Below are positions 6,487-54,434 of a stretch of 64,000 nt of DNA, in pieces. Each line of letters begins with the position of its first letter. Position 1 is the stretch's first letter. Origin of the DNA: a virus (lineage: Duplodnaviria > Caudoviricetes); the IMG/VR virus record IMGVR_UViG_3300025715_000009, positions 160,001 through 224,000 of that record; one strand, 5' to 3'. Position numbers and translations under genes: made by a program. The notes under the pieces were generated by a model, which was given only the letters and a program-made list of their open reading frames with translations, was not told the DNA's origin and searched no databases.

Positions 6487-7607
6487 TATTTCCTCCAAGC
6501 AATAGTAACATTTACTCTTGGATCATTGATTGGAGCTCCTGTTGCTACACAATAAACCTGTATAACATCACCAGCAGAAAAATCTATATTTAATGTATCA
6601 TTATTATATTTTCCTGTTGTAAGAGAAAATGTTGCAAGATCTGTTAAAACTCCATTCTTACGAATTGCAAAACCTTTACTTTGATCACCTGCTCCACCAA
6701 CTGCTGATACTCCAACGATTGTTCCATTTTTAAGAACTGAATAGCCAGAATTTAAATCACTATGGAAACCAGTTGATAAATAATTAGCATCACCTTTTCT
6801 TGCTTGGAAAGAAACAGATGTTTGATTAATACTTAACCACTTGGATCTTGTGCTATCATAGGCATATAACACTCCATCTATATTTACAATTTGACCTGCT
6901 GCCACACCAACTGATGGAGTATAAGCCACAGGTGTAATTTGTAATGGTGCATAATCATTAGATGCATTAAATGTAACTGGTCCATTATCTATTGCAATTG
7001 ATGATCCACCATTATATGCAGCATCTAATGTTAATCCAGGGATAGTAGAACCAGAAATACCAACTGCTCCAATATAACGATATACTCTAACCCATAGTGG
7101 TTGAGACCATCCAAGATTTGATGCAGTATACCCAGCTCCAAGAACAATAAACCCCATCTTATAAGATGGGACCCAAGCACCTTGAGTTGTAGTAATTTCT
7201 GTACCAGGAGCTGTACCACTTCCATTATCTTGGAAAAGTTTCATGGCATAGCCCTTTCCAAAAATTTGTGGAATAAGCCAATCACCTTTTATAACAGATG
7301 ATTCATTTCCTGGTGTAGAAAAAGCAGCCCAAGCTCTATCATTTGTTCCTGTTATTTTTGTTAATTTAAGATCAATTTTTTCAATCATAGTAGGATTAGC
7401 TGCAACAGCAGCATCTGCTTCGGCTGGAGTATTAGCAACTGGAACTTGTTCTACATATAAATCTTGATTTAAAAGAAATGGTCTCCAACCATATTTCTCT
7501 TCATAATATGCAAGACCACTTGAATCTGATGTATTACTTAAACCTTGAACACCAAATACCATTTTAATTGCTAAATTAAGTTTTTCTTGATCAGTTAAAT
7601 TTGCCAT
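6486..7607 (-). CDS. Virion structural protein (paralogue of 20850..21923)
   Basis: Shares LD.AY.G, Y.YD..RSKW.S and terminal IAWR with 20850..21923 and the C-terminal module of 1210..4632. Confidence 0.7.
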   Translation of the reverse strand: MANLTDQEKLNLAIKMVFGVQGLSNTSDSSGLAYYEEKYGWRPFLLNQDLYVEQVPVANTPAEADAAVAANPTMIEKIDLKLTKITGTNDRAWAAFSTPGNESSVIKGDWLIPQIFGKGYAMKLFQDNGSGTAPGTEITTTQGAWVPSYKMGFIVLGAGYTASNLGWSQPLWVRVYRYIGAVGISGSTIPGLTLDAAYNGGSSIAIDNGPVTFNASNDYAPLQITPVAYTPSVGVAAGQIVNIDGVLYAYDSTRSKWLSINQTSVSFQARKGDANYLSTGFHSDLNSGYSVLKNGTIVGVSAVGGAGDQSKGFAIRKNGVLTDLATFSLTTGKYNNDTLNIDFSAGDVIQVYCVATGAPINDPRVNVTIAWRK

Positions 7608-8428
7608 AAATAATTCTCCAATAATTTTGGATTTTTTTCTATATTAATAAGATCGCTTGTCAAAATAAGAACCAATCCAATTTCGTTTTTTGCTAAATCA
7701 ATTTTATCTTTTTGTAACTCATAAAAATAATTTGCTTTTGTATCTATATATTTATTTTCTATAATAAAATCTGGAGCATATCTTTCACCAGAAGATAGAA
7801 TTATTTGTTTATGATATAATTCCCATTTATAATTTAAATTATCAAGAATTTTTGCTAATCTTAATTCATATGTTCCTTGACATTTATGAATTTTACCGGT
7901 TTTATCAACAAATTCTATCCATTTACTTTTGCCACCCTTATTAATAAATTCTTTATATTTATTTACATCTTGATGGGCTTTTTTTAAACCAATACTTATT
8001 TTGTTTTTATATTCTTCTGTAAAGATTTTATTTTTTAACTTTAATTTTACATCCTCTCTTTGTGAATTATGTTCAACATTATATTTAGCCATTATACTTT
8101 TTTTCATTTTTTCTTTATCTTTAAGTATATAATCTATACCATATCTACTTAAATTAGTTTGTTTTATTTTTTCTTTAACAGAATTTAATTGAAAACAATT
8201 TATAACTCCATATTTTTTTAAAAAAGAACATTTTTTACAATAACAACCATTGTTACTCATAATACTTTTTTTATTAGTAATAATATCACATTCACAATCA
8301 AGACATTTTGTTTGAACTCTATCACGTTGTTTAATTTCTATTCCATTTAAAAATAAAGCTTTAAATTTTACGCCATTATAAATAGAATCTTTAATTTCTA
8401 TTTTTGGGCTAAATGGTATAGAAATCAT
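7595..8428 (-). CDS. Putative PD-(D/E)xK homing endonuclease with CxxC motifs and KYGV repeats
   Basis: CLDC and CKKC; KKYGV/SRYGI/AKYNV repeats; C-terminal YE...YAPDF...YIDTK; Lys-rich; free-standing. Confidence 0.75.
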   Translation of the reverse strand: MISIPFSPKIEIKDSIYNGVKFKALFLNGIEIKQRDRVQTKCLDCECDIITNKKSIMSNNGCYCKKCSFLKKYGVINCFQLNSVKEKIKQTNLSRYGIDYILKDKEKMKKSIMAKYNVEHNSQREDVKLKLKNKIFTEEYKNKISIGLKKAHQDVNKYKEFINKGGKSKWIEFVDKTGKIHKCQGTYELRLAKILDNLNYKWELYHKQIILSSGERYAPDFIIENKYIDTKANYFYELQKDKIDLAKNEIGLVLILTSDLINIEKNPKLLENYLWQI

Positions 8429-13067: not shown

Positions 13068-13075
13068 ATTATCTT
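13068..13075 (-). promoter_or_regulatory. AAGATAAT candidate promoter, 3 nt before ATG (probably leaderless)
   Basis: Directly follows a terminator U-tract; no SD. Confidence 0.5.
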
Positions 13076-13077
13076 GC

Positions 13078-13106
13078 AAAAAAAAAGAGAGCAAGATGCT
13101 CTCTTT
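13078..13106 (-). terminator. Intrinsic terminator
   Basis: GAGAGCA-TCT-TGCTCTC stem-loop followed by T9 on the minus strand. Confidence 0.85.
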
Positions 13107-13124
13107 AAAATAAAACAACAATTA

Positions 13125-13394
13125 TTATACTTTATTGCCTTGTAATAATATCTTGGCAGCTATATTTGGTTCAGGATCAATTAAAATTCCACCTTTTAAC
13201 CAATCACAAAAATCATCCATTTTCATCTCTTGTTGGTTTACATATTGTCCATCTTTGCTAACACGACAAACAACATAAAGATCATTTTCATCTCCATCTT
13301 TAGGAGCGTATTTTGTTACATCGATAACACGGATGACATCTGCTCCATCAAAAACAACTGGAGGCATTGTAACTTGAAACATTCTTCCAATCAT
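13125..13394 (-). CDS. Hypothetical protein (C-terminal AAKILL)
   Basis: ORF track; SD GAGG. Confidence 0.6.
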   Translation of the reverse strand: MIGRMFQVTMPPVVFDGADVIRVIDVTKYAPKDGDENDLYVVCRVSKDGQYVNQQEMKMDDFCDWLKGGILIDPEPNIAAKILLQGNKV

Positions 13395-13396
13395 AT

Positions 13397-13699
13397 TTAC
13401 CTCTTCATTTGTAATCTAAATTTTGCTTCATCGCTTATATTATCAAATTTTACTAAATAAATTCTATTCTTTTTTTTACTATCTATTAAAAATCCTTGAA
13501 GTGATATTTGTCCAATGAATTGTAAGTTTATATCATAATTATCTATGAGAAAAAATAATGTATCTTGTATCATTCCAACATCTAAAATATGATAATATCT
13601 ACTAAAAGAAGAAGTCATAGTATCAAATGATAATGAATCATATAAAATATCATTTGGGCGTATATCTTCTACTGATTTTATTTCAATTAACTCAGACAT
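13397..13699 (-). CDS. Hypothetical protein (C-terminal EAKFRL)
   Basis: ORF track; overlaps the topoisomerase stop. Confidence 0.55.
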   Translation of the reverse strand: MSELIEIKSVEDIRPNDILYDSLSFDTMTSSFSRYYHILDVGMIQDTLFFLIDNYDINLQFIGQISLQGFLIDSKKKNRIYLVKFDNISDEAKFRLQMKR

Positions 13700-15455
13700 T
13701 TGGATATTTTTTATAAAAATCTGACTCTACATCCTTGGCCCATTCAAAACGAGCTTGTACTGATGGAGTATAAAGGCGCTTGATATCTACATTATTATCC
13801 TTACACCAACTAATACCAATCCTCGGATCAGAATAATTCAGTTTAGATGTACCAAGAGCAACGCCCTTGGTTTTTTCTTTCATATCAATTTTAGATTGAA
13901 GGTCATTAATTCTTTCTTCGAGCTTATTTAGCTTTTTAGTAAGAGCTTCCTCTTTCTTTTTATATGTTTCTTTAGCTCTCCTTATACTATCTTTTTTTCT
14001 ATCACCAGTATACTTCTCAGCAAAGGAGATACGCTTATCTCTTTCTTGTTTGAGAAGATCAAGCTCTTGTTTGAGAGATGCCTTAATATTTTTAAATTCA
14101 TTTTTATATGTCTTAAGCTTATCCTTCATGTTCTGCAGAGAGCGTTCATATGCTTCAGAAACAGCAGATTGGTGATTAAGCTTAAGAGCAACTTCTAAAT
14201 TGGCATTAACATAATACTCAAGTTTTTTCTTCTCAGAAAGAGAAGAATTGATTTTTTGAGCTTGTAATTCCTTGGCTAGAAGAACAGAGCCGGTAGCTGT
14301 TCTAAATTGTTTCGCAGTGAGACCAGGAAGTACCATACCCAAGAATTCATTGACATCAGAACTTGTAATTGAATCAAAAACTTGTTCACTTTTTCCTTTA
14401 CCATTAATAAACTCCTCTATATTACGAATTGCATTAATATGCAAATTCTCTACACGATTATGGTAGCGAATGCTATCTTTGCCAAGAAAATCAAAAACAA
14501 CTGCTGTCCCATCAACTTGAATATGCTCTACTCTCAGAGTAGTAGCACCCACGGTATCAGCTTCGTCTTCATCTTTTTCATCTCCTACACGAATACTCAT
14601 TTTGGCAATGAGCTCGCAGACAGTTGCAATTTGACGAGTAGAACGATCACGAGATGCAAGTTTCTTTTCAATAAATGAATTTACTTTATCAAAGTTATTT
14701 GCCAGCTCTATTGCCTTGGCAAATTTCTTTTCAGCTGATTTGTGAGATACAATAGAAGTAGCAGAAAAGAGGATTGGTTTAAATTTGCCAGTAAGAGGAC
14801 AATACCACCCAGCAGTAAAAAGACTATTTTGATTCTCTTCTACCCTCTTCCAAGAATGACCTTCAGGAGGAGAAGGAGGGTTAAGATTGAGAGAGTGGTT
14901 AATTATAACATCTTCAGGGGCGATTGCTCTTTTCCATGAACCACGAAGAGGATGATTACCTCTCCCAAGGAAAAGGCCAGCAGGTTCAACCACATAATTA
15001 CCAAGAGGAACTTTTTGACCATCAAGTTCAGCAAAACCATGAATAGCTTTTAGCTCTTCTCTCTTCCTCTTCTCTTCTTCTTTTACCTCTTTCCCAATCT
15101 GCTTTTTTTCATCTCTTTGAGCAATATAAATTCGTCGTAGTTTAGTAAAATCCCAGTCTTCAGGAAACTTAGATTTCTTTATCTCTTCATAATCAAGGTA
15201 GTTGTTAAGAGTAGAATTAGCAAGACCATCAGAAAATGTTTTGATAAAGTCTTTAAAAAAATTCTTTTGAAAAGTTTTGTCTTTTACATATGGTGTTTCA
15301 AATTTAGCAACCCAAGCCCATGCCATTTCTTCTTGTTTGGAAGTGAAAACAAATTCTTTATCAAACAGCTTAAAACAGGCACCCTTAAACTGATAAGGTT
15401 TAGGGAATACAGGGCCATTATGTTTAAGTGTTTTCCATTTTTCTGCCATATTCAT
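13692..15455 (-). CDS. DNA topoisomerase IB, long (eukaryote/archaea-like) form
   Basis: KWKTLKHNGPVFP; EPAGLFLGRGNHP; catalytic R (IRVGDEK), K (FLGKDSI), R (TAKQFRT), H (LNHQ), coiled-coil linker, Y in GTSKLNYSDPRI. Confidence 0.95.
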   Translation of the reverse strand: MNMAEKWKTLKHNGPVFPKPYQFKGACFKLFDKEFVFTSKQEEMAWAWVAKFETPYVKDKTFQKNFFKDFIKTFSDGLANSTLNNYLDYEEIKKSKFPEDWDFTKLRRIYIAQRDEKKQIGKEVKEEEKRKREELKAIHGFAELDGQKVPLGNYVVEPAGLFLGRGNHPLRGSWKRAIAPEDVIINHSLNLNPPSPPEGHSWKRVEENQNSLFTAGWYCPLTGKFKPILFSATSIVSHKSAEKKFAKAIELANNFDKVNSFIEKKLASRDRSTRQIATVCELIAKMSIRVGDEKDEDEADTVGATTLRVEHIQVDGTAVVFDFLGKDSIRYHNRVENLHINAIRNIEEFINGKGKSEQVFDSITSSDVNEFLGMVLPGLTAKQFRTATGSVLLAKELQAQKINSSLSEKKKLEYYVNANLEVALKLNHQSAVSEAYERSLQNMKDKLKTYKNEFKNIKASLKQELDLLKQERDKRISFAEKYTGDRKKDSIRRAKETYKKKEEALTKKLNKLEERINDLQSKIDMKEKTKGVALGTSKLNYSDPRIGISWCKDNNVDIKRLYTPSVQARFEWAKDVESDFYKKYPNV

Positions 15456-15470
15456 ATTATAATCCTTTTA

Positions 15471-16019
15471 TTAATTCTCTAAATTAAGTAATAGTTTGGC
15501 TGCTCTTGCTTGCAAACGATCAAAATCATCAATGAATAAAAATATATCATAACTCCAATGGCCATAACTCCCACTACCAGACCCTGTGTTTAATGGTATA
15601 GGATATATATTATTTTTATAACTAGGAAGATATTCTCCTTTACTTGTATAAGTTTTTCCACTTATCCTGCCTCTATATCCAGGATAACCAAATGGGAGTT
15701 CAGGTTTATTATGCCAGTTTGTTGGTTTTCCTACTGGAGCATGATGACTATTAGACACCTCTGGATTAAATGTGACATCAAGAGATATATCATCAATATG
15801 GTCATCATACATTTCTTTAAGAAAATCATTTATCACTTCAAGATAGTTATCTAAATCAAAGTTTTTATAAAATTTTGCAACTGCATTTGCATAATTATTT
15901 TTTCTAAATTCTTCTAAAGCAGCTTCTTTTCTACAAATATCTTCATGCTCAAAAGCTTTTTTTATATTAGAGAATTTCTTTTTACAGTACTCACATTGAT
16001 AATGCTCAACTATAATCAT
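15471..16019 (-). CDS. Zinc-finger phage protein (C-terminal AAKLLL)
   Basis: YQCEYC...HEDIC finger; VSNSHHAP..GYPGYRGRI motif. Confidence 0.6.
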   Translation of the reverse strand: MIIVEHYQCEYCKKKFSNIKKAFEHEDICRKEAALEEFRKNNYANAVAKFYKNFDLDNYLEVINDFLKEMYDDHIDDISLDVTFNPEVSNSHHAPVGKPTNWHNKPELPFGYPGYRGRISGKTYTSKGEYLPSYKNNIYPIPLNTGSGSGSYGHWSYDIFLFIDDFDRLQARAAKLLLNLEN

Positions 16020-16020
16020 C

Positions 16021-16293
16021 TTAATGCTCCAATAAATATTTAGCCATTATTACATCAAATTCATCTTTTGTTATTACTTTTATAGCTGTTTTTAATAATC
16101 TATTTATCCCAGCCAAGTTATGAACAATATCACCCTCTGTTAAACCATAACTTGAAAAATAATAAAATTTAACTTTATATTCATAAGTTTTATCTGTCTT
16201 TCTTCTTGAGTATAAAAAATAATATTCATCGTCATCATCTTTTACATTATGTCTTTTACAAACAAATACTTGACCAACTTTATGCACCTTCAT
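16021..16293 (-). CDS. Hypothetical protein (C-terminal MAKYLL)
   Basis: ORF track; SD AAGGAG. Confidence 0.55.
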   Translation of the reverse strand: MKVHKVGQVFVCKRHNVKDDDDEYYFLYSRRKTDKTYEYKVKFYYFSSYGLTEGDIVHNLAGINRLLKTAIKVITKDEFDVIMAKYLLEH

Positions 16294-16639
16294 TTAATTG
16301 CTCCTTGGCAATAACATCCCACCCTATTTTAACTATTGATCCAACATAAATTTTATGATCTAAAACTCTTTTTGGCACCCATTTAATCAACTCATCTGGG
16401 TCTTTCATATTACTAAAACTCCAAGTATAATACTTGGTGTCTGTTTTGCCTTTTTCACAAAATAATCTTATTTTATAAATAAATTTTTTATTAAATTTTC
16501 TTTTATCTACTATTTCCATATACTTTAAAGAATTATATGGAAAAAATTGGGTTGTTCTTCCCAATCCATCTTTCGAGACATCACTATCAAACCCATAACT
16601 TTTGGGACAAGTAAAAACATCACCAACTTCGAACATCAA
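16280..16639 (-). CDS. Hypothetical protein (C-terminal IAKEQL)
   Basis: ORF track; SD GGAG; FEVGD start typical of SH3-like phage orphans. Confidence 0.55.
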   Translation of the reverse strand: MMFEVGDVFTCPKSYGFDSDVSKDGLGRTTQFFPYNSLKYMEIVDKRKFNKKFIYKIRLFCEKGKTDTKYYTWSFSNMKDPDELIKWVPKRVLDHKIYVGSIVKIGWDVIAKEQLNEGA

Positions 16640-16829
16640 AACTCCAATTTTCGCATATACTACAAGAAGGATCTATATCATCAATATTTATTTGATTAGC
16701 ATCACAATATATATAACCTTTACCTTTAATCAAATAATAACAATTAATACATAGTTTAACATCTTGATTATTTAATAATTCCTTGGCCAAAAAATTGACT
16801 GGCCATTGTTGGGGAACTACTCTTCTCAA
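16620..16829 (-). CDS. Small Cys-rich hypothetical protein
   Basis: CINC, YC and CSIC; ATGA coupling. Confidence 0.55.
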   Translation of the reverse strand: MRRVVPQQWPVNFLAKELLNNQDVKLCINCYYLIKGKGYIYCDANQINIDDIDPSCSICENWSFDVRSW

Positions 16830-17011
16830 ACGTTTTCTACCCCAGTAATCTTAATTCCATATTCATCTTTTTCCCAAGTGAATTGGAATTTTTTCCTCTT
16901 ATCCACCCAATCTTCAAGAGAGTCAAGATGTCCATCATCAGTAATGAGCATATTATACTCTTTACAAAGATCAGCAAATTTTTCTAAAAATTCATGCTGG
17001 AATCTATTCAT
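16826..17011 (-). CDS. Small hypothetical protein
   Basis: Start moved to MNRFQ (17011), which follows SD AAGGAG. Confidence 0.55.
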   Translation of the reverse strand: MNRFQHEFLEKFADLCKEYNMLITDDGHLDSLEDWVDKRKKFQFTWEKDEYGIKITGVENV

Positions 17012-17201
17012 CTCTTCTCTCCTTGATAAATTTATTGATATCAATTTCTTGACCATTAAAATAAAAATGATCACCAGAAAATGGACGCAAAATAGCTTTG
17101 ATTAGTTGAATAATATAAGTTAATATTGTGGATAAAATTATTATTCCACCTAAAAATATCCAAAAACCATTAAATAATAATAGTTGTAATATCTCAATCA
17201 T
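17004..17201 (-). CDS. Small membrane protein
   Basis: Long hydrophobic N-terminal segment; ATGA-type coupling. Confidence 0.6.
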   Translation of the reverse strand: MIEILQLLLFNGFWIFLGGIIILSTILTYIIQLIKAILRPFSGDHFYFNGQEIDINKFIKERRDE

Positions 17202-17821
17202 TTAAATAATTCTCCCTTAGAATTATACCAGAAAACAAAATCAAGAGCAAAAACAGGAATATTAATATCATGGGCAAAATCAATCATTTTACTTTCAATT
17301 TCTAAATATGCTTTTTTATTCATATGCCTAGGAACTTCAGGGATGACTTTGTTAGCTACAAGATTTCTAAGAATATGGCGATCAAGAATACAAATTTCAT
17401 CACCAAAACCAACATTTCTAAGAAAATGACTTGCTTCTTTCATGCCCAATCCATTAATAGTATCTGCAAGCCAATTTCTTGTTTCTACTACTCCGATCTC
17501 TGCAATTTTATTTTCAACTATATTTTTAATATTGCTATATTGATTAATTGCTTGAGCAATATACTTGGCTTTGTTTTTATTAAATCTTACACCAGCTGCA
17601 CTTAATTCTTGCTGAATTAGATATTGATCTGGTATATTTAAAAGATTTGACTTAGTAAGATATTGAACTGCTTTCCACCCACACTTAGCATTTGTTTGTG
17701 GAGTGCAAAGACAAAACACAAGTTCTGAAAATACTTCTTGTCCACCTAATTTCCAAATTGTTTTAAATGTTAGGTATCGTTGATCAATCTCTGGTTTAAT
17801 TTGTTTGTAGATCTGCAACAT
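17198..17821 (-). CDS. ogg: 8-oxoguanine DNA glycosylase/AP lyase (OGG2 type, HhH-GPD)
   Basis: FSELVFCLCTP, GVRF..NKAKYI, HhH GLGMKEASHFLRNVG, ILDRHILR, LD..FW and C-terminal Lys. Confidence 0.9.
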   Translation of the reverse strand: MLQIYKQIKPEIDQRYLTFKTIWKLGGQEVFSELVFCLCTPQTNAKCGWKAVQYLTKSNLLNIPDQYLIQQELSAAGVRFNKNKAKYIAQAINQYSNIKNIVENKIAEIGVVETRNWLADTINGLGMKEASHFLRNVGFGDEICILDRHILRNLVANKVIPEVPRHMNKKAYLEIESKMIDFAHDINIPVFALDFVFWYNSKGELFK

Positions 17822-18362
17822 GTTCTCCCCTATGATAAATAAAATCTAAATATATTTTGACAAATGATTCATTGATAGTATAATAATCATATTCATCATT
17901 TCTTATAACTGGCAATACAGATGAAGAGAGTAAAAGCGTTTTAACCCATATAATATCACTATCTATATTTGTTATACATTCTTCTAATTCTTGATAAAAT
18001 AAAAATCCAATGTCTGTAAACTCATAATAATAACTTGGTTCATAAAATAATTTTAATAATCCAGCAGCTTCAAATCCTTCAACCAACTCTCTAGAAAGTT
18101 TCAATCCAAAATGAATTAAACGTTCATTGTTATCATAATCTTGAACAGTGCTACATGCTCTAAGTAATTTAATATGAGGAATTTTACCAAATTTATAATG
18201 TTTAGCATCTTCAGTGCTTATCGTAGTGAGAATTTTAAAATATAACATTAATGCTATCGCATTGTTATCAGATACTTCTTTATCATTAGATGCAAAAATT
18301 GGGAGTATTTTATTATCTGATAATAGTTTAATGAATTTTTGTTTATTGACTTCTATATCCAT
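17796..18362 (-). CDS. Protein with a ribosomal bL12 C-terminal-like motif
   Basis: KIPHIKLLR...GLKLSRELVE resembles bL12 KI..IK.VR...GLKEAK.LVE; start moved to ATG 18362. Confidence 0.45.
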   Translation of the reverse strand: MDIEVNKQKFIKLLSDNKILPIFASNDKEVSDNNAIALMLYFKILTTISTEDAKHYKFGKIPHIKLLRACSTVQDYDNNERLIHFGLKLSRELVEGFEAAGLLKLFYEPSYYYEFTDIGFLFYQELEECITNIDSDIIWVKTLLLSSSVLPVIRNDEYDYYTINESFVKIYLDFIYHRGEHVADLQTN

Positions 18363-18368
18363 GTGGAT

Positions 18369-18397
18369 ATTATACAATAGATAGGATATATTCTAAA
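18369..18397 (-). promoter_or_regulatory. Sigma70-type promoter, leaderless
   Basis: TTTAGA-17 nt-TATAAT, then 6 nt to ATG 18362. Confidence 0.6.
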
Positions 18398-18404
18398 TAA
18401 TAAA

Positions 18405-18587
18405 TCAGTGGGTAGAGGCTTCAACAAAGAATTGAAGTTGTTCAAGTAATTCTTGTTTTGGTAGTAAATTCTTTTTTAAAATTACTTGACCAGCCTTCTC
18501 ATGATTGTTCTGTGAAAAAGAGAGTATCTCTTTTTTCAAATTCTTGTCTATTTTACCCCTTGACTCCAAGAAATCCAAAAAATCCAT
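18405..18587 (-). CDS. Stand-alone degenerate MshEN-like protein
   Basis: FLDFLESRGKI...IL / KAGQVILKKNLL...LLEQLQ tandem pattern; SD GGAG. Confidence 0.5.
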   Translation of the reverse strand: MDFLDFLESRGKIDKNLKKEILSFSQNNHEKAGQVILKKNLLPKQELLEQLQFFVEASTH

Positions 18588-18613
18588 GGCTTCTCCATCT
18601 GAACGAATATATT

Positions 18614-18621
18614 ATTATCTT
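18614..18621 (-). promoter_or_regulatory. AAGATAAT candidate promoter
   Basis: Between a terminator and the 18587 start. Confidence 0.5.
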
Positions 18622-18634
18622 ATGTAGAAACAAT

Positions 18635-18661
18635 AAAAAAGAGAGCAAAAAGCTCTCTTTT
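18635..18661 (-). terminator. Intrinsic terminator
   Basis: GAGAGC-T5-GCTCTC plus T6 on the minus strand. Confidence 0.8.
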
Positions 18662-18676
18662 GTAAAAATTAACTAA

Positions 18677-19501
18677 TTAAACATTTTTATGATATTGCAA
18701 ATCCCTTACATACCTTGCTACTATTTCATGAATAGGATTATAGTCCCAAGAAGAATTTCTTACATCTTCCCAAGCGGAAGACCAGGTTTTAATTTTATCC
18801 ATATCCACTTCAGACCATGTAGTGCGAAGTGAATTAAGATAATCTATTACTTCTTGAACAGTTGCTTTTTGTTCTTGAGATCGTAAAATAAAAAGGCGAT
18901 CTTGTTCGGCCTTATCTATGGCTTGTGATAGACCAAGAGCTACAATCTTTTGTGTCTCTTCTTCTGTTAGATAATGTTTATTGTATGATACTTGTATAAG
19001 TAGTTCTTTGGCTTGCATGATCATGAATTGATTAACAATCAGATCACGTTTAACTTCCTTATCTAGATCTTTATATGCCTGTTTTCCTTTTTCTTCCATC
19101 CATCTATATTTTTGATACCCAATTTTTTTCTTTTCATCTTCTGAGAGAGCATCCCAAGCTTCTTGGCCTAATTTATCTTTAAGATCATTTCTAGCCTTAT
19201 TTGTTTCTGACATAACTCTCTTCATAAGAGCCTCTGCCAGATTGATATCTACACCCTTATCTTTAAAATGATGAATACATTCACTTCCTACTTTTAGAAT
19301 TTGTTCTGTTTTAAGGTTTTTAACTTCATAGGCAAAGGCACAATTTTTGTGTCCACAAAGCTGACAATCAAAAAATCTAGGATCGTAATAAGCATTGACA
19401 AGCTTAAACTCGTCATCAGGATTAGATGATATATTTGCTAGGTTTAATTGGATGCGATTAACAAAAGATTGAGAGCGGTATATCTTGTTATTATAATTCA
19501 T
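18677..19501 (-). CDS. Hypothetical protein with zinc-binding CxxCGH...VGSEC motif
   Basis: CQLCGHKNC...KVGSECIHHF; helical C-terminus. Confidence 0.6.
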   Translation of the reverse strand: MNYNNKIYRSQSFVNRIQLNLANISSNPDDEFKLVNAYYDPRFFDCQLCGHKNCAFAYEVKNLKTEQILKVGSECIHHFKDKGVDINLAEALMKRVMSETNKARNDLKDKLGQEAWDALSEDEKKKIGYQKYRWMEEKGKQAYKDLDKEVKRDLIVNQFMIMQAKELLIQVSYNKHYLTEEETQKIVALGLSQAIDKAEQDRLFILRSQEQKATVQEVIDYLNSLRTTWSEVDMDKIKTWSSAWEDVRNSSWDYNPIHEIVARYVRDLQYHKNV

Positions 19502-19510
19502 ACATCCCCC

Positions 19511-19545
19511 TAATGATATTATATCATTAAAAAGAGTTGTCTAAA
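19511..19545 (-). promoter_or_regulatory. Sigma70-type promoter with overlapping 9-1-9 palindrome
   Basis: TTTAGA-16 nt-TATAAT with extended TGn; perfect inverted repeat TAATGATAT-N-ATATCATTA at 19511-19529. Confidence 0.6.
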
Positions 19546-20104
19546 CTATTGAAACACGGCCCTGATTATCTATGGCTATAACTGACTTACATTGTGGACA
19601 TCTAAATCTTCCAGATTTTTTAGTAGATAATTTTTTATCACAAATTGGACATTTAAAAACTCTTGGAAAGATGATTTCTTTATCATCAACTGTTATATTT
19701 TTAGCCAAATTATTGATTGCTTCTTCAAAAGAATCATCAAAATTAAAAAATGTAGAGAATCCTAATAGTTGAAAAACTTCAAAAACCTTAGGTTTCATAT
19801 TAATAATACTTATGTTTCCATTTTTATTTTTAGCTGTTTTTAAAAAATCAACAAATGCTCCAATTCCAGTTGATGACATATAGTCAATTCCACCACAATC
19901 AAAAATTAATTTGATATAGCGAGCATTAAAACACATATCTACTTTCTGTTTAAAGAACTTTGTGTTATAATTATCAACCACACCATGACATTCTATTAAA
20001 AGCATATCATGGTGTGTTGGTATACGACGTAAGCGAATTTTAAAATCTTTTACAGTTTCTTTATCAAAGCCTGGAATTATCAAATCATTATCATTATAAG
20101 ACAT
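19541..20104 (-). CDS. STAS-domain anti-sigma factor antagonist with C-terminal zinc ribbon (spirochaete type)
   Basis: IDYMSSTGIG phosphoserine motif, PKVFEVFQLLGF, N-terminal IPGFD, C-terminal FP..FKCPIC...GRFRCPQC. Confidence 0.9.
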   Translation of the reverse strand: MSYNDNDLIIPGFDKETVKDFKIRLRRIPTHHDMLLIECHGVVDNYNTKFFKQKVDMCFNARYIKLIFDCGGIDYMSSTGIGAFVDFLKTAKNKNGNISIINMKPKVFEVFQLLGFSTFFNFDDSFEEAINNLAKNITVDDKEIIFPRVFKCPICDKKLSTKKSGRFRCPQCKSVIAIDNQGRVSIV

Positions 20105-20463
20105 CAGTACTCCTGATTTAGTAATATTTTAGCAGCAAAATCATATGGTATAAATTTTATTTTGATTATTAAATTAGTTTCAAAATATAAATTGCTTAAC
20201 ATATAAATTTCACCATTGTTGTTATCTTTAACAAAATTGCCTATTTTTATTAATAACTCTCCTAATCTTAATAAATCTAATTTGTTCTTATAAACATGAA
20301 TTTCAAAACAAAAATATCTTTTTCTTTTATCCCATTCACCCTTAGTAGTAAAATATTTTTCATATTTATCAATAAAAAGAGTTAAAAGTTGTTGTTCTAT
20401 ATCTTGATTTAAAAAATCTTTAACTTGTTGTGCATAGACTTCATATTCTTGTTTAGTAATCAT
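20104..20463 (-). CDS. Hypothetical protein (C-terminal AAKILL)
   Basis: SD AGGAG; upstream TGnCATAAT extended -10 at 20481-20489. Confidence 0.6.
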   Translation of the reverse strand: MITKQEYEVYAQQVKDFLNQDIEQQLLTLFIDKYEKYFTTKGEWDKRKRYFCFEIHVYKNKLDLLRLGELLIKIGNFVKDNNNGEIYMLSNLYFETNLIIKIKFIPYDFAAKILLNQEY

Positions 20464-20507
20464 ATTTACTCCTAGAAATAATTATGCCAAAATAGGATTA
20501 AATATAA

Positions 20508-51800: not shown

Positions 51801-54099
51801 AATCTGACAAGAAGTTAATTGCAGCAGCAGTTTTATCAGCAACATTAATTGCTGTATCATTTTTATTAATTAAAACGGAAACACCGGTTTTAGTTGCTAA
51901 TTGTGGATATAATGGAAGACCACTTCCTGGAGAAGATTCTACCAATTTGGGATCAAGAGAATCACCAACACCATTAAGGTCTGTATCAACATTCATCCAA
52001 ACATAATAATCAGTAAATGGAGAATTTATAAGAAAATATTTTCCAGACAAAGAACCATTTACATCGGCAGCACAAGTTATATCTGTAATTTCTATTCCTG
52101 TATTATCTATCTCTTCTAATTGTGCTCCATCTATTTGAAGTGGTGTATTAGATTCACAATTAATATAATATTTCAAATATTTTGCATCATTAGAAGATAC
52201 CCTAAATGATAGTTCTGGTCTTATCCACGTGTTGATATTGCTTGAATCTATTGCCCAATTTTCTTCACTAAGTGTGATAATTTCATCATTTGCATTATAC
52301 TCAGCAATTCCAATTGTAGAATTTTGTGGAGCAACTGATTTTAAGAAAACAGAAAAATTATAAATTCTATTTCTTGAATTTGGCTCTAAAAGATATGTTT
52401 GCCAGACAGTAGCCTTAGAAGCAGAAACATATTTTGTAAGTACACCTTTATAATTACCCCATCTATCAGTATTAGAATTACCAGAAGAGGCTGTCATCTT
52501 GAATGTAGAAAGCATTGGGATGAGATTGTCAGTTATATTCCAGTTTGTAGGAGTATCTCCAGGAACGCCTGTTTCAAATGATCCGTTTTTTGAGAGATTA
52601 AAAATATTTTTATTGATAGATGTATCAATTATAATATTTCCTCTTGTTCTCTCTAATGTTGTAATTGTTTTTACAAGTGGATTTCCTGCTTGGTCTTTTA
52701 TTGTTGTATTTAAATCTAATGCAGTAAATGTCCAATTAAACATATCGTCTTCATCTATAACTTCACTTAAACGTTGATCAGAATGCCAAAGTGTTGTTTC
52801 ACCAGCAATCCAAATTTGATCATTCCATTCATACATAGATATAATGTTTTGATCAGTGCTAAATAATCCGAGTGTTTTTACAGCAGCCTCAGGAAATGTA
52901 TTAGTTAAATCAATTGCTCTAATAAAACCATTTGTTCCGAATACAAATAAATGATTTTTAAATCTCTTTATGCCAGTGTTAATAAATGTGGTTGATCCAC
53001 TGCTAATATCTTTTTGTTGCAATTGTATTGATACAGCGGATTTATAATATAGGTACTTTGTCTGTGTAGATCTAAGAATAAAATAGATATTATCATTAGA
53101 ATCAACATATAGATCTTGAATATCAGCATTAGAATCTAAAAGATTTTCTGCTACTGACCATTGAATGTCGTTAAAGAAGATACCATCTGTTATAACTTCA
53201 TATTCTTTTTCACCAGTTGTTAAATTTGTTGTAAATCTATTTTTTTCTAAGAATTTATCTTTTATTTCAATATCTTTTTTTATTTCGACATTAGATACAT
53301 ATGTTCCTGGAATTGTTTGACCTTCATCAGTTGGACATTTTAACCAATAGCCTTCACTACTCTGACCAAAATTGATATCATTTTGGAAGTTAACAACTTC
53401 ATTAGTAGATGCTTTTGAATCTGCTTTTAATGGTGTTATTTCTTCCCAATCTCTATATGTTTTATATACTAAAACTCTATCGTCTTGACTTGGATTAGTT
53501 GTTGATTTATTAGTAATTTTTATTTCATAAGACTCAAAATTATCCGGGAGATTTTCAGATATTGTTGTATAAACAACTCTATATTCACCAAAATAATTAT
53601 CATCTTTAAGATCAGTAAAGGCAACTCCATCTTCATATTCAGGGAAAAGAAGTGAATCATCTTCTCGCAAGAAATATAATATTTTTTGATTTCCAATACG
53701 AGTAACTTTACCATTTATAATAGAAGAGCCAGAATTAACTCTAAGAGGTGTTATAAATATTTCAGAGGATGGAACTTCAGGGTCAGTATAATAATCTTGT
53801 GTTTGTATGTCAAGTGAAAATTCGTTATATTTATTTTTAAAAACACCATGATCTACTTCAGAAGCAACATCAGAAATGTTTTTATCTAATATAACATCAT
53901 TCTCTACCAAGTTTTTGAGTGGTCTATTATCTGTAGAAGCAACAACTTCATCTTCTTCAATATAAGCCTCTACACCAGGACCAATAATTTCTCCATTGAT
54001 ATCATAGGCCAATCCTTTAGTATTTGGATTGTCTCTATCACTATGATCTGGATATGGATTTCCTATTGAACCCGTGCTCCATTTTTTGATAACGCTCAT
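39832..54099 (-). CDS. Giant (4755 aa) baseplate-associated fibre protein
   Basis: N-terminal NRPLKNL..ND anchor; three CBM-like N...N..F...D..QLE domains; beta-helix (FVDPISGLDTNNG...FKTV); LamG-like domains; coiled coils; C-terminal H.LGT repeats. Confidence 0.8.
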   Translation of the reverse strand: MSVIKKWSTGSIGNPYPDHSDRDNPNTKGLAYDINGEIIGPGVEAYIEEDEVVASTDNRPLKNLVENDVILDKNISDVASEVDHGVFKNKYNEFSLDIQTQDYYTDPEVPSSEIFITPLRVNSGSSIINGKVTRIGNQKILYFLREDDSLLFPEYEDGVAFTDLKDDNYFGEYRVVYTTISENLPDNFESYEIKITNKSTTNPSQDDRVLVYKTYRDWEEITPLKADSKASTNEVVNFQNDINFGQSSEGYWLKCPTDEGQTIPGTYVSNVEIKKDIEIKDKFLEKNRFTTNLTTGEKEYEVITDGIFFNDIQWSVAENLLDSNADIQDLYVDSNDNIYFILRSTQTKYLYYKSAVSIQLQQKDISSGSTTFINTGIKRFKNHLFVFGTNGFIRAIDLTNTFPEAAVKTLGLFSTDQNIISMYEWNDQIWIAGETTLWHSDQRLSEVIDEDDMFNWTFTALDLNTTIKDQAGNPLVKTITTLERTRGNIIIDTSINKNIFNLSKNGSFETGVPGDTPTNWNITDNLIPMLSTFKMTASSGNSNTDRWGNYKGVLTKYVSASKATVWQTYLLEPNSRNRIYNFSVFLKSVAPQNSTIGIAEYNANDEIITLSEENWAIDSSNINTWIRPELSFRVSSNDAKYLKYYINCESNTPLQIDGAQLEEIDNTGIEITDITCAADVNGSLSGKYFLINSPFTDYYVWMNVDTDLNGVGDSLDPKLVESSPGSGLPLYPQLATKTGVSVLINKNDTAINVADKTAAAINFLSDFVAYRIQNTIKVQVKTDLPGEVVDAEAGTLGPEGFSINVAIQGLYQASQYVENYEYLFIGFEKQPNNTQDPPFAFIDIKNPTGPQAIKYVNGKYGKIKRVNAALHDDSNRMFVADDKRIYSLVFLNNYTTYDRFTLVDIGEKESDLDFTKNIYKFESIAKFNDRILFGGTVDNRVIKAKYKDDANDHTIEFKPATDDSEQLLDLLGENIFVYSNGVDSASREFTRIEHCYEVIDPNGDTTLGYYKPNERYGFEVWVDGKKDGEQITIISPKEDSGPWTIQQIYEAIKTIYSGAKLEWLDPRGQDSISPDFDWKIPESSSIKTDGFYSIGRKDLTKHIRGNVHKIFIPENQTKKFYIIRGKQIFQSKYDPNVLKNSSGFYPDTPIIKGTVLTEELLPKSLNSSNVGDIWHVLDKAYYQWLGDHWVEIPYYTKWKIYDDVVLTKYKHIDNVEKTFGDTSINKVWIDLPIDPGYNLLKGSVRLKTNTVAEVGFTEGEDYFVDYTNNKIIRSDTDNLLSNPDFSYFQSAIQKFGYVYKGQKSLKSELPVNGMVLNDAWFVSNESTYYRCINPSGSTIETIWEKFYNDNVPTSWDLHLLNGNEIETRFKQTKDLYDDRNDITEFVLQPETSGEEIGLIYQVKDVDFASDTYTLSLDLKSYNYSKAIIRISECDNSNVNNFGYNKSSNSFTDTVFRSSVLIKEIGEFNNFEDVEDYDKWHRLSLSHEVQDSRTTKLRVEIYSLTTGQLLVDKVQLEKNASATPFIEGSRFSRIDPNMHVWADFVEYQEMEKGIDYSFDTNTRKITIHETISDNEYFYFQYKYEKIFNAYDFGNSKPITTIIYDPRDDYFLLRPEGRIWAINQMFAMLSLEIQDPIKVSYNYHYPRIDQIKIRNTPDRFGNFIYIVRGRSAYDNPYKPYDPGVGTGIRESKQYYNGVEIYEIEDNTNNDVLYEINVVDNDYQINDIYDRRIYIDARDNLNFNISLLPETLAYFPFKKDFNSTNGLTPLNFIQNSKIIPIIKNYSVIQLEEIGAWHDGYQLGLRTKFTYPGTSFSVFVDPISGLDTNNGRSETTAFKTVKKALDALYYNDTDDYVTNIIITQPANITENIEIDKPFTVSIVAKSYCNWLGSIQNITKLNLQGIYFKNTSLYPYNELSIYYCTFENTSLNCVSPQKINIYNSEARYNHNSLIRVKNILYPSPFIHPYMKSSERDDGITGTPLSVATSDNESIAPGDVFTNIVQQSASYTFQNCLIHNSTDHIVEFDPEPNWSGSFGFDFCTIADNNGLFATPKYDLIINYSNSILFNNNEVLGDQAKPFNTNSSVNFDTCFIDFPNFSTGVGEYTNFNYRSGDLLGRESCIYSEGVGGSPQFIGEDDYHLKSIAKGSTSDSPALEQGRGGLDLGCYAEIRQQTEKDIPRKLKNYTAYIDEAIRYAMAINSEKITVTLEFKPAGSVANSGILFDTRVADDNEDYIVLAYNNNALDNHSVEPDPTNSPTDPYHFRVIVANKEKSYSIISPIDITSDEEYQKWHRLSFTINYEKIINSKPQFDEYNKLQNIIIFYHNDQESIESFVKYDLSRYTNGKLIPGRGDDGNNAWNYNDITKYITIGAAFDGSNKMTGYYDEFRIDNRFIDRKQFELWNVKKVQFNDPVSYVNQIPLARTLDPRTLQEYWSLKGDSDLGAKKNRFLPETNKRMTWEDGYQAWFIGNPTENILQNSNFSGNHNALAQTTVIDYTTPLVLESNWRIKTYESRLISDNTGITINVVNPDLPQYSAAAGYQDLGLNITDFNASSGVGAGEFVFDIDINGQPTERHTIELEADPGYQELTFSSSITGSSPTPLNPSGVETEYDLQYTLYPGSTVVDKTVKLEGTKEITDITVVGDLGYLKNKFFEISSLRDETQYYVWFSDGTYLDGGSRDPAGQKQTTVITVNLNWDIPGYTSWEGKGFTIYKNDGTAVNIWIDVSTVSGSTPDFGNTGSYLPLNLTYSVLGPEVLRNEIANRIVTLLSPISDFNIQRVDNVITITNTQNATLSLAEDHDSIGIFTITTTKVGAAPDTNLASPSTKTGVEVVIASGDNQDAILTKVATAFPVTKMTATKHNGQAETTTITALSNNILDYDSKYFTIMSNDQYGNDRLYYVWFDANQAGVEQVTEITCSADDTTSNDPNLMLNEKFFTISGGGNEHYFWYNVANDGRDPGINQPAVQEQFTLEFTDTIKLKEDYEGKYFELSTPTGDYYVYYTVNNQSVTLPPSDKNRIKVDLDSSITGVDQRIAIIEKTIAVLTAQVSGFTNDSMIRNYNSEGEYTARFIIPAGATSLESSNGTFGSDMIFSLKVKGKNYRAKTYLGSGIGHMVEIAANESANDVASLTNSRINSVIDFNSTVLNNILTVTNAVKESVSPPDFSYINFTGSVITSGIKPTTNPSPSGYTGIKVEIDGLVTKEEIADAIRTTVNTAAEFNASGTGAVVEIVTTDDTHYISDPSIGTLNGVITLAVNYQGKLPYVRFTNIENGAVNINPRSGTAGARYLIFQEGSNANTTFASLVNKLNVVTSGDLIWSIVNGKLRATTTARGDTASVEINPTCELLDALDATTQTKQYGTPVDDRWDIILSKLNNLNLGISWNKVGLDIRAISNFEGTNSGVKFTDTTETNDLLTAIGVNYSTLPAAFDGYARVTISNQYELEKMMYAAFEGINTRITWGIRNGRLMFLTDDFVASSIEVDFKEDVGVINPIQVISGLKQVGVPGSEIWDISVVLETPLNNTVSFNLNPKYNKFSENSLVVEKMSTVPLYITQRKFLQENTKYTLSAYIHSDDRITSNHLQCKITNEEKNWTKIEKLDDNWWRVIYTFINEYAGDYNIGFVIKEVDRIYIDSVQLEAKTFASPFVESTNNTIGRIKIGKSLLNKERGTIFFKFKPYFEYENNETKTIISLPAYDAGIVNQSLGLKVIYYFDSDKNRGIFEYSINNDSSSIWRFETTDDFFNQWHSIGFVYDYINNRFVYWFDYFNYIIDSPFANNIWADMYIGYDTSTEKAADIVVKDVIIHDYTTTDSEVLNWNTTYEFYNESFISSNIEEMKNEILGIKQDTYEYVDITNDIVNTVNSLQSRVAEYEENEINNDNAISKLKNFTGYAWPFNQDSSSLPSGVGNHENRITTLEATALNLDIKTTSIQNNLINTNNAVNTLDGNIDTLSDGLNNEINARVIADQQIKDLYASTDINKGAALIGVYDVGARYSATTVEDILQEIAGAGRTTESLKSLKDDITAIGSSTSTSLEDLDYMQDGNSGLWTRSLAQSSGYNIYNIKTNLTALDIEVESIKDNQTSVAESYQDILTGFVDADDTALSSNGDYSLIINGGEYYFTTSSIITWEDLIINYLPNAIHTTSGLPLSLSYRIEAISYIDGVNTLYNIRIFDKTDYTLGHAINIQSGISYLDLISSLGATLSSATAIGSSFIASTMNNVTLSSRITQEVNDRQATVNALRTDLLSQDLNRGASLIGVEGNGLFIETTVEDVLQELAGPGRNASMTVAGNYNAIQGMISDISTLQTNTSSNSSSISNINNTLGLMKDGIDGSTWNALATKPNLMNHESRITTNTQNISSANVAIAVNSNDIFNLNQSVGALSTGLSTEINNRVNGDLSIRQDLASTTVGKGASLISIQDVAGKYTATTVEGALAEVDDKIAALAGALSWQSPVNTYADLPTSGNTVGNARTVLDDGDGRQAQYVWSGTAWVKIADIDWGQASDISYNNTTSTIPATTVQAAIDYVYLNQKDKTSSQGEILNTAWQVGSGQYNGYYYADVNHGLGTTDVVCLITENGIVIGVEEIERLDANNVRIYVADNSLNLDITVFGVIDKYSKVVSQWTPDGQGGYYADIVHNFNTNKLMVSTFDIDTTLGLGWLTGAESIEFIDLNTIRVKTADNATTMNVFIVKKANNSITKDIQKWTWDPTKNAYISLIQVDASYDAVFTFFDPSTGKTVGIDMVQLENGVLTLARSQNDIIRMIIVK

Positions 54100-54434
54100 T
54101 CTTTTTCCTCCGACTCTTTAAATATTATCTTTATAACTGCTTGATTATTCATTGCATTTTCTCTTTTTACTCTTGCTTGTTTATTATATTTGATTGCTAT
54201 ATCTTTTAATAATTTTAAAATATATCTTATTTTTGAATCTGTATTACTTAGCATAGCATATTCTGATTTAAGATGAAAAAGCATGTTATATCCACCTTGG
54301 CTTAAATATATTTCTCTCATTCTTAAATCACCAAAATTAGTTATTTCTTTTGTTTTATTTATTTCATCATAAAATGAATTAAATTGTTGAACTATCTCTT
54401 GAGACGCTTCTGTTATTAGATTTTTAAATTTCAT
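54096..54434 (-). CDS. Hypothetical protein, possible internal head protein
   Basis: N-terminus MKFKNLITEA resembles the T4 capsid targeting sequence. Confidence 0.5.
   Translation of the reverse strand: MKFKNLITEASQEIVQQFNSFYDEINKTKEITNFGDLRMREIYLSQGGYNMLFHLKSEYAMLSNTDSKIRYILKLLKDIAIKYNKQARVKRENAMNNQAVIKIIFKESEEKE

Follow-up and report, generated by a model that had tools for sequence, protein, structure and literature searches.

AKxLL, a short peptide label on small proteins of an uncultured T4-like jumbo phage, and its probable role as a docking helix

F-box, BC-box/SOCS-box and poxvirus ankyrin-PRANC adaptors each combine a variable binding domain with a short helix, shared across the set, for docking on a common machine. 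In phage T4, the capsid targeting sequence (CTS) is a late signal cleaved after Glu, and peptides that bind the gp45 clamp follow the consensus S/T-L-D-x-x-F. The CTS is an N-terminal helical label that directs encapsidation of diverse small proteins, including anti-defence proteins (PMC3012670), and the ClpXP N-motif-1 degron of lambda O lies at the extreme N-terminus and enters the pore (PMC12723719). Paired MoxR AAA+ ATPases and metallopeptidase-vWA proteins of group 2.2 jumbo phages have been proposed to act in virion assembly; the available part of that account describes no tagged adaptor set (PMC7824862). Here we describe a peptide label, AKxLL, recurring in a 64,000 nt stretch of phage DNA (the window), positions 160001–224000 of virus record IMGVR_UViG_3300025715_000009 (388,268 bases, 98 % complete). 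Coordinates marked 'genome' or G000 refer to the whole 388-kb record and all others to the window. The source is an uncultured T4-like jumbo phage of 388 kb, whose T4-like major capsid protein has <40 % identity to that of every named phage; its DNA was found in anaerobic-digester and activated-sludge metagenomes. A simple codon-usage caller gave 607 genes across the genome, and all counts are therefore approximate.

Genome-wide, AKxLL is strongly concentrated at protein ends, with 25 copies near N-termini against 0.7 expected and 16 near C-termini against 0.5 expected. When paralogues are collapsed, 31 independent terminal families remain against 6 interior matches (p 1e-31). These terminal copies agree with the sequence-only reading followed up here, which had considered chance the less likely source of a recurrent terminal tag. 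The same reading had confined the tag to one accessory block, which is true only inside the window: a profile scan located 53 carriers where 3.5 were expected. They are distributed along the whole genome, 52 of them on the minus strand, and the block contributes five gene calls plus 16620, whose start was first called too far downstream. The number of small proteins tagged at one end is thus put at ~45–53. Of the 25 N-terminal copies, 19 start at residue 7, and C-terminal copies begin 6–17 residues before the end; in small proteins, interior copies are 4.7-fold enriched. Termini of the related contigs G003, G005, G006 and G007 are likewise strongly enriched, the tag is present in L127 and L128, and G004 carries a T-K-x-L-L-like variant; the Ala-to-Thr change is also present in L132. 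Tag-bearing relatives span 29–41 % GC. The terminal tag is absent from five control phages (PBECO4, Atu_ph07 with 400 of 490 kb covered, RM378, Mel-JY01 and Bas54). As had been supposed, no named family was found in the libraries and papers searched, and the open literature that was searched contained no account of the motif.

AKxLL is a protein-level signal and not a DNA signal. Matches to the codon pattern within genes number 49 in frame 0 against 3 and 1 in the other frames. In five contigs the synonymous codons at the tag track each genome's own usage, and a relative of 41 % GC uses all six Leu codons. Selection therefore acts on the peptide, since the pattern is held to a single reading frame while synonymous codons vary freely. 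The A, K, L and L core positions are 74–89 % conserved in 27 homologue pairs, the bodies 39 %, and the family of the 20104 protein keeps the tag at its end (Table 1).

AKxLL does not fit any of four known classes: T4 CTS, ClpX N-motif 1, clamp-binding peptides and DNA cassette ends. Like the CTS, it marks diverse small proteins of a T4-type phage, anti-defence proteins among them, with a short helix; unlike the CTS, it stands at either end or internally and mostly on early- or middle-type genes, with 4 of 21 AKxLL units late-type (by motif only), and the phage has CTS-like leaders of its own. N-motif 1 contains AKIL, as the tag may, and the two share A-K-x-L of the T-A-K-I-L core; in the tags, however, position +2 is free, the preceding Thr is rare, and the copies do not lie at the extreme N-terminus, being found near either end or as an insert. 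The AKxLL consensus also differs from the acidic-hydrophobic C-terminal consensus that clamp-binding peptides form on replication and transcription proteins; a separate gene (genome 61688) ends in SLDDFFN. Cassette ends of the PeSL-like or dual-coding type would show frame-independent nucleotide conservation, which the frame restriction described above does not fit. The trait of box-type adaptors, a short shared motif on variable and exchangeable binding domains, is present in the MORN, WGR and Tad6 bodies, the MORN tag swap and the Tad6 insert described below. Those adaptors belong to eukaryotic ubiquitin ligases, and the likeness is one of logic only.

No protein in the genome carries both AKxLL and hIKxIF, a second tag. 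Within a 30-member MORN family, 7 members have AKxLL, 21 have hIKxIF and none has both. Where the body of an AKxLL carrier can be recognized, it is a binding module, namely MORN, WGR or a Tad6-family protein; CxxC Zn-binding folds also occur among the carriers. The homologue of the anti-Thoeris Tad6 family (genome 383984–384703, L018:11984–12703; Pfam E 1e-30) holds the tag helix within a 24-residue insert that interrupts the Tad6 domain; an outgroup Tad6 of 39 % identity lacks this insert. The probable start of the gene is a GTG, 76 codons before the obvious ATG, although an internal Met without a Shine-Dalgarno sequence may serve instead. Assignment as an N-tagged protein is disfavoured: the frame stays open for another 81 codons, and the motif is most likely an internal one. 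Proteins of the Tad6 family co-purify with ThsB of the Thoeris system (PMC13728456). Given this insert and the enriched interior copies in small proteins, a free terminus seems not to be required, and internal copies therefore favour a docking helix over a degron or a packaging or cleaved leader.

A generic sigma70 scan of the block was at chance (76 versus 76), so the description of these genes as sigma70-driven did not stand in that form. It survives for a phage-specific motif, TTTAGA-N16/17-TATAAT, which has 33 sites genome-wide against ~0.4 by chance, 32 on the minus strand. Of its three copies in the block, two stand ahead of six of the seven genes; the remaining gene, 20104, lies upstream of every copy, with a GCATAA motif in their place. 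Two other upstream motifs are prominent, GCATAT and AAGATAA, the latter preceding structural genes and genes with head-targeting-like leaders. Counted by transcription unit, AKxLL genes lie behind TTTAGA/TATAAT or GCATAT in 17 of 21 cases and hIKxIF genes behind AAGATAA in 21 of 23 (p 1.6e-6). The idea of two temporally separate labels thus holds insofar as the tags are mutually exclusive and divide by promoter class; it does not hold as a feature of the block or of strict termini. Judged from these motifs, AKxLL goes with middle-type (GCATAT) promoters no less than with sigma70-type ones. An RNA library contains parts of the block and gives neither expression nor timing. The genome has two sigma-like genes, at 1834–2403 (Sigma70_r2) and 133682–134443 (weak late-sigma match). 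A third label is found genome-wide, namely T4 CTS-like N-terminal leaders (M-K-F-x-x-h-L-x-E) on ~17–25 small late-type genes (e.g. window 54096–54434), 14 of 17 being late-type by motif; one protein has both such a leader and an hIKxIF tail.

Taken together, AKxLL is probably a docking helix on exchangeable early effectors, binding helix-in-groove to a single partner. The tag AKxLL(L/N) would form a portable amphipathic helix of two to three turns on ~50 small early/middle proteins and plug into one groove of one common partner. The bodies would be variable target-binding modules (MORN repeats, WGR, CxxC Zn-binding folds and the Tad6-family ThsB binder), and because of this the tagged proteins may act as swappable adaptors on a shared hub. 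That the hub is phage-encoded and non-structural, with MoxR as the first choice, is possible, if short of probable. The leading candidate reader, tentative and favoured on circumstantial grounds, is the early MoxR AAA+ ATPase and its peptidase-VWA partner (genome 275526–278442, 51 kb past the window), with the ~110-residue C-terminal helical domain of the ATPase as the likeliest docking site. Adaptors would then deliver host defence or regulatory proteins for remodelling or cutting. The broadest version, in which jumbo phages run adaptor-directed remodelling or degradation, an early MoxR machine reading AKxLL on dozens of target-binders including the Tad6 homologue and a second, late set being virion-borne, is rather doubtful as a whole.

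The genome has two sets of MoxR AAA+/HExxH peptidase/VWA genes, both conserved across the clade. In the fused (early) set a TTTAGA/TATAAT motif precedes each gene, as for AKxLL genes. The split (late) set (genome 280665–285894, L013:1665–6894) lies behind AAGATAA and has head-targeting-like N-terminal leaders, with homologues in L127–L130 and G005. The C-terminus of its ATPase is an L-K-x-L/V-F helix similar to the hIKxIF tag, and the same position in G005 is occupied by a scaffold-type LAG ending, which hints that hIKxIF may be a head-binding signal. The candidate hub is of the same kind as the published pairs of group 2.2 jumbo phages (PMC7824862), NorQ-NorD (PMC13036017) and Bas54 (PMC13716836): it matches Pfam AAA_5, DUF2201_N and DUF2201, has an invariant DxSGS (metal ion-dependent adhesion site, MIDAS) and shows the MoxR-ATPase/VWA linkage. 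Unlike them, it is duplicated into early and late sets, and its early ATPase, whose best fold matches are NorQ and CbbQ, bears an extra, clade-specific helical C-terminal domain with invariant R290 and D363. A profile of this domain matches 11 of 11 clade ATPases, none of 77 outgroup ATPases and none of 4 control MoxRs; a fold search with it returned generic helical bundles only (best Z 7.1, no Foldseek match at E<=0.001). Among neighbours of the ATPases, tags are found on 17 of 284 in the clade and 3 of 1497 in the outgroup. Phage Bas54 requires both a MoxR and an unannotated 99-aa gene to counter defence system DS-28 (PMC13716836). At L132:6397–7627, the two MoxR sets are separated by an array of hIKxIF-type genes. 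In a 344-kb phage (L193:5526–14797), ~18–25 small genes ending F-x-L-K/R-W lie directly downstream of a MoxR ATPase; they were not counted as an independent tag. Two STAS anti-anti-sigma proteins with a C-terminal zinc ribbon are encoded at window 19541–20104 and G000 275013–275483, and in most relatives one such protein directly follows the early MoxR pair.

Several observations weigh against docking on MoxR or against the adaptor scheme more generally. In the ATPase tree the tag-bearing phages form one clade (100/100); co-occurrence of tag and MoxR is therefore a single event, confounded with ancestry, and a PhuZ-like tubulin and other clade-specific genes fit the distribution of the tag equally well. 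MoxR/peptidase-VWA pairs are common in the untagged phages PBECO4, Atu_ph07, RM378 and Bas54, and no AKxLL occurs in Bas54 gp140. The C-terminal region of outgroup ATPases is of comparable length, so that this domain is diverged and not absent. Few or no tags lie near the ATPase in clade loci L130, L131 and L133. In NorQ-NorD it is the VWA protein that engages the ATPase pore, and the accessible part of that account describes no third adaptor (PMC13036017). Early, middle and late classes are read from DNA motifs alone, four AKxLL units lie behind late-type motifs, and most carrier bodies are without known function. A three-chain prediction of the early ATPase, the peptidase-VWA and the 34-residue tail of the 13125 protein scored 0.68, 0.66 and 0.63 and missed the required margin of 0.20 over every control: two replacements of the tail gave 0.00 and replacement of the peptidase-VWA 0.70, in a design that cannot assign the score to a kept chain. 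It was not used as evidence either way.

The reader may instead be a conserved host machine, with AKxLL as a ClpXP degron or tether or a DnaK chaperone site that sets the half-life of early proteins or sends bound targets to host proteolysis. The basic-plus-Leu3 core of the tag resembles the DnaK peptide NRLLLTG. AAA+ proteases read both protein ends, the phage has genes for ClpP and for DnaJ- and Hsp20-like proteins (by sequence), and the AKIL of lambda O lies within TNTAKILNFGR (PMC12723719). The residue-7, near-C-terminal and internal positions of AKxLL are nevertheless not those of N-motif 1, the near-invariant Ala and acidic upstream residues would suit a helix in a groove more than an extended DnaK site, and a universal host reader leaves the absence of the tag from the five control phages unexplained; we regard this as unlikely. 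Docking on another phage hub that localizes early effectors, such as the PhuZ-like tubulin (phrog_4733), a sigma factor, phage ClpP or some core protein lacking annotation, is subject to the same phylogenetic confounding as MoxR, and the tubulin and several unannotated core genes are common to the tag clade and unmatched in controls. These are candidates by distribution only, none shown as two copies matching the two tag classes, and such a hub is quite unlikely. The tubulin gene itself (G000 7142–8182) sits in a T4-like phage and is conserved in G003 and G005.

AKxLL could also be a second head-packaging signal akin to the CTS, loading proteins into virions for the next infection. An h-x-x-h-h helical pattern is common to AKxLL, the CTS-like leaders and hIKxIF, and the T-even internal proteins are diverse anti-defence proteins with only a CTS in common (PMC3012670). 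TerL here begins with the motif as well, but this copy is not retained in homologues and TerL was rejected as a carrier. As AKxLL carriers are mostly behind early/middle motifs, the separate leader set is late-type and AKxLL has no fixed Glu cleavage site, packaging is improbable. We regard it as highly improbable that the peptide arises as the by-product of some DNA or RNA element (a recombination cassette end or ribosome-binding enhancer), or that it is a generic membrane-binding helix. There is a mild TTA excess in the genome (p 0.02), the ribosome-binding site of the next gene follows closely on C-terminal copies, and the Tad6 insert resembles a captured gene start. Frame restriction, free synonymous codons in five contigs and copies at both ends and inside proteins largely refute the DNA version, and near-invariant Ala-Lys appears too specific for lipid binding.

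Within the block (Table 1), all seven strings of the sequence-only reading were found at their ORFs (open reading frames) on the minus strand. Against a profile built solely from four other phage contigs, six of them score significantly (13125, 15471, 16021, 16280, 16620 and 20104; per-protein p 0.001–0.005), so that its tag list stands without EAKFRL at 13397. The proteins are otherwise unrelated, as had been claimed: no Pfam family occurs in any of the seven, and searches of Pfam, PHROGs and ESM Atlas with them returned nothing useful. ORF 15471–16019 has a weak C2H2-like N-terminus and a PHROG 12523 body, and a homologue search with its protein found a single copy, at 92 %. Its last codons (window 15472–15475), downstream of the tag, contain a compensated one-base deletion and insertion common to three sludge/sediment strains. 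ORF 16620–16829 looks like the N-tagged CxxC family found elsewhere in the genome.

Table 1. AKxLL copies, upstream motifs and terminator of the block, in window coordinates (aa, amino acids)
Feature	Position	Strand	Remarks
AKILL tag near C-terminus of 89-aa ORF 13125–13394	13143..13157	-	Significant; retained in 74 %-identical orthologue
AKFRL, doubtful variant near C-terminus of 100-aa ORF 13397–13699	13412..13426	-	p 0.14
AKLLL tag near C-terminus of 182-aa ORF 15471–16019	15486..15500	-	Significant
AKYLL tag near C-terminus of 90-aa ORF 16021–16293	16030..16044	-	Significant
AKEQL variant tag near C-terminus of 118-aa ORF 16280–16636	16295..16309	-	p 0.003; 31 %-identical orthologue has AKEEL
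AKELL tag near N-terminus of Cys-rich ORF 16620–16829	16773..16787	-	Significant
AKELL, possible internal tag copy in 274-aa ORF 18677–19501	18998..19012	-	Identical string in related phage G006
AKILL tag near C-terminus of 119-aa ORF 20104–20463	20119..20133	-	AAKxLL ends 8/8 family members found
AAGATAA late-type motif opening two hIKxIF genes (12843, 12615), directly after terminator	13069..13075	-	Sequence
Terminator-like hairpin closing AKxLL block	13084..13106	-	Sequence
TTTAGA-N16-TATAAT sigma70-like (early-type) motif before topoisomerase IB, 13397 and 13125	15456..15483	-	Sequence
TTTAGA-N17-TATAAT early-type motif upstream of 16620, 16280, 16021 and 15471	18369..18397	-	Sequence
TTTAGA-N16-TATAAT early-type motif before ORF 18677–19501	19518..19545	-	Sequence
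GCATAAT, variant of middle-type GCATAT, before 20104 gene	20481..20487	-	Sequence; class inferred

Other genes of the block include a full-length type IB topoisomerase-like gene (window 13692–15455, by sequence motifs) with its own early-type promoter and 37–64 % identity in related phages, and an 8-oxoguanine glycosylase-like gene (window 17198–17821) whose L130 homologue has PF22175 Ogg-HhH. Two homologue records, MoxR homologues included, are filed under Treponema metagenome-assembled genomes, a weak hint only of a spirochaete host.

Most jumbo phage genes are small ORFans, and the shared handle places ~8 % of the genes in this genome in one functional class and offers a direct route to the partner of these small proteins. 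New here are a promoter test at the level of transcription units, the correspondence between two tags and two MoxR sets, a clade-specific domain on the ATPase, and the insert in Tad6. If the reader is the MoxR/peptidase-VWA pair, a widespread and unexplained gene pair would gain a counter-defence job, consistent with the genetics of Bas54. AKxLL would then stand for modular targeting in phages; if true, this would be the prokaryotic-virus equivalent of F-box adaptors serving a ubiquitin ligase.

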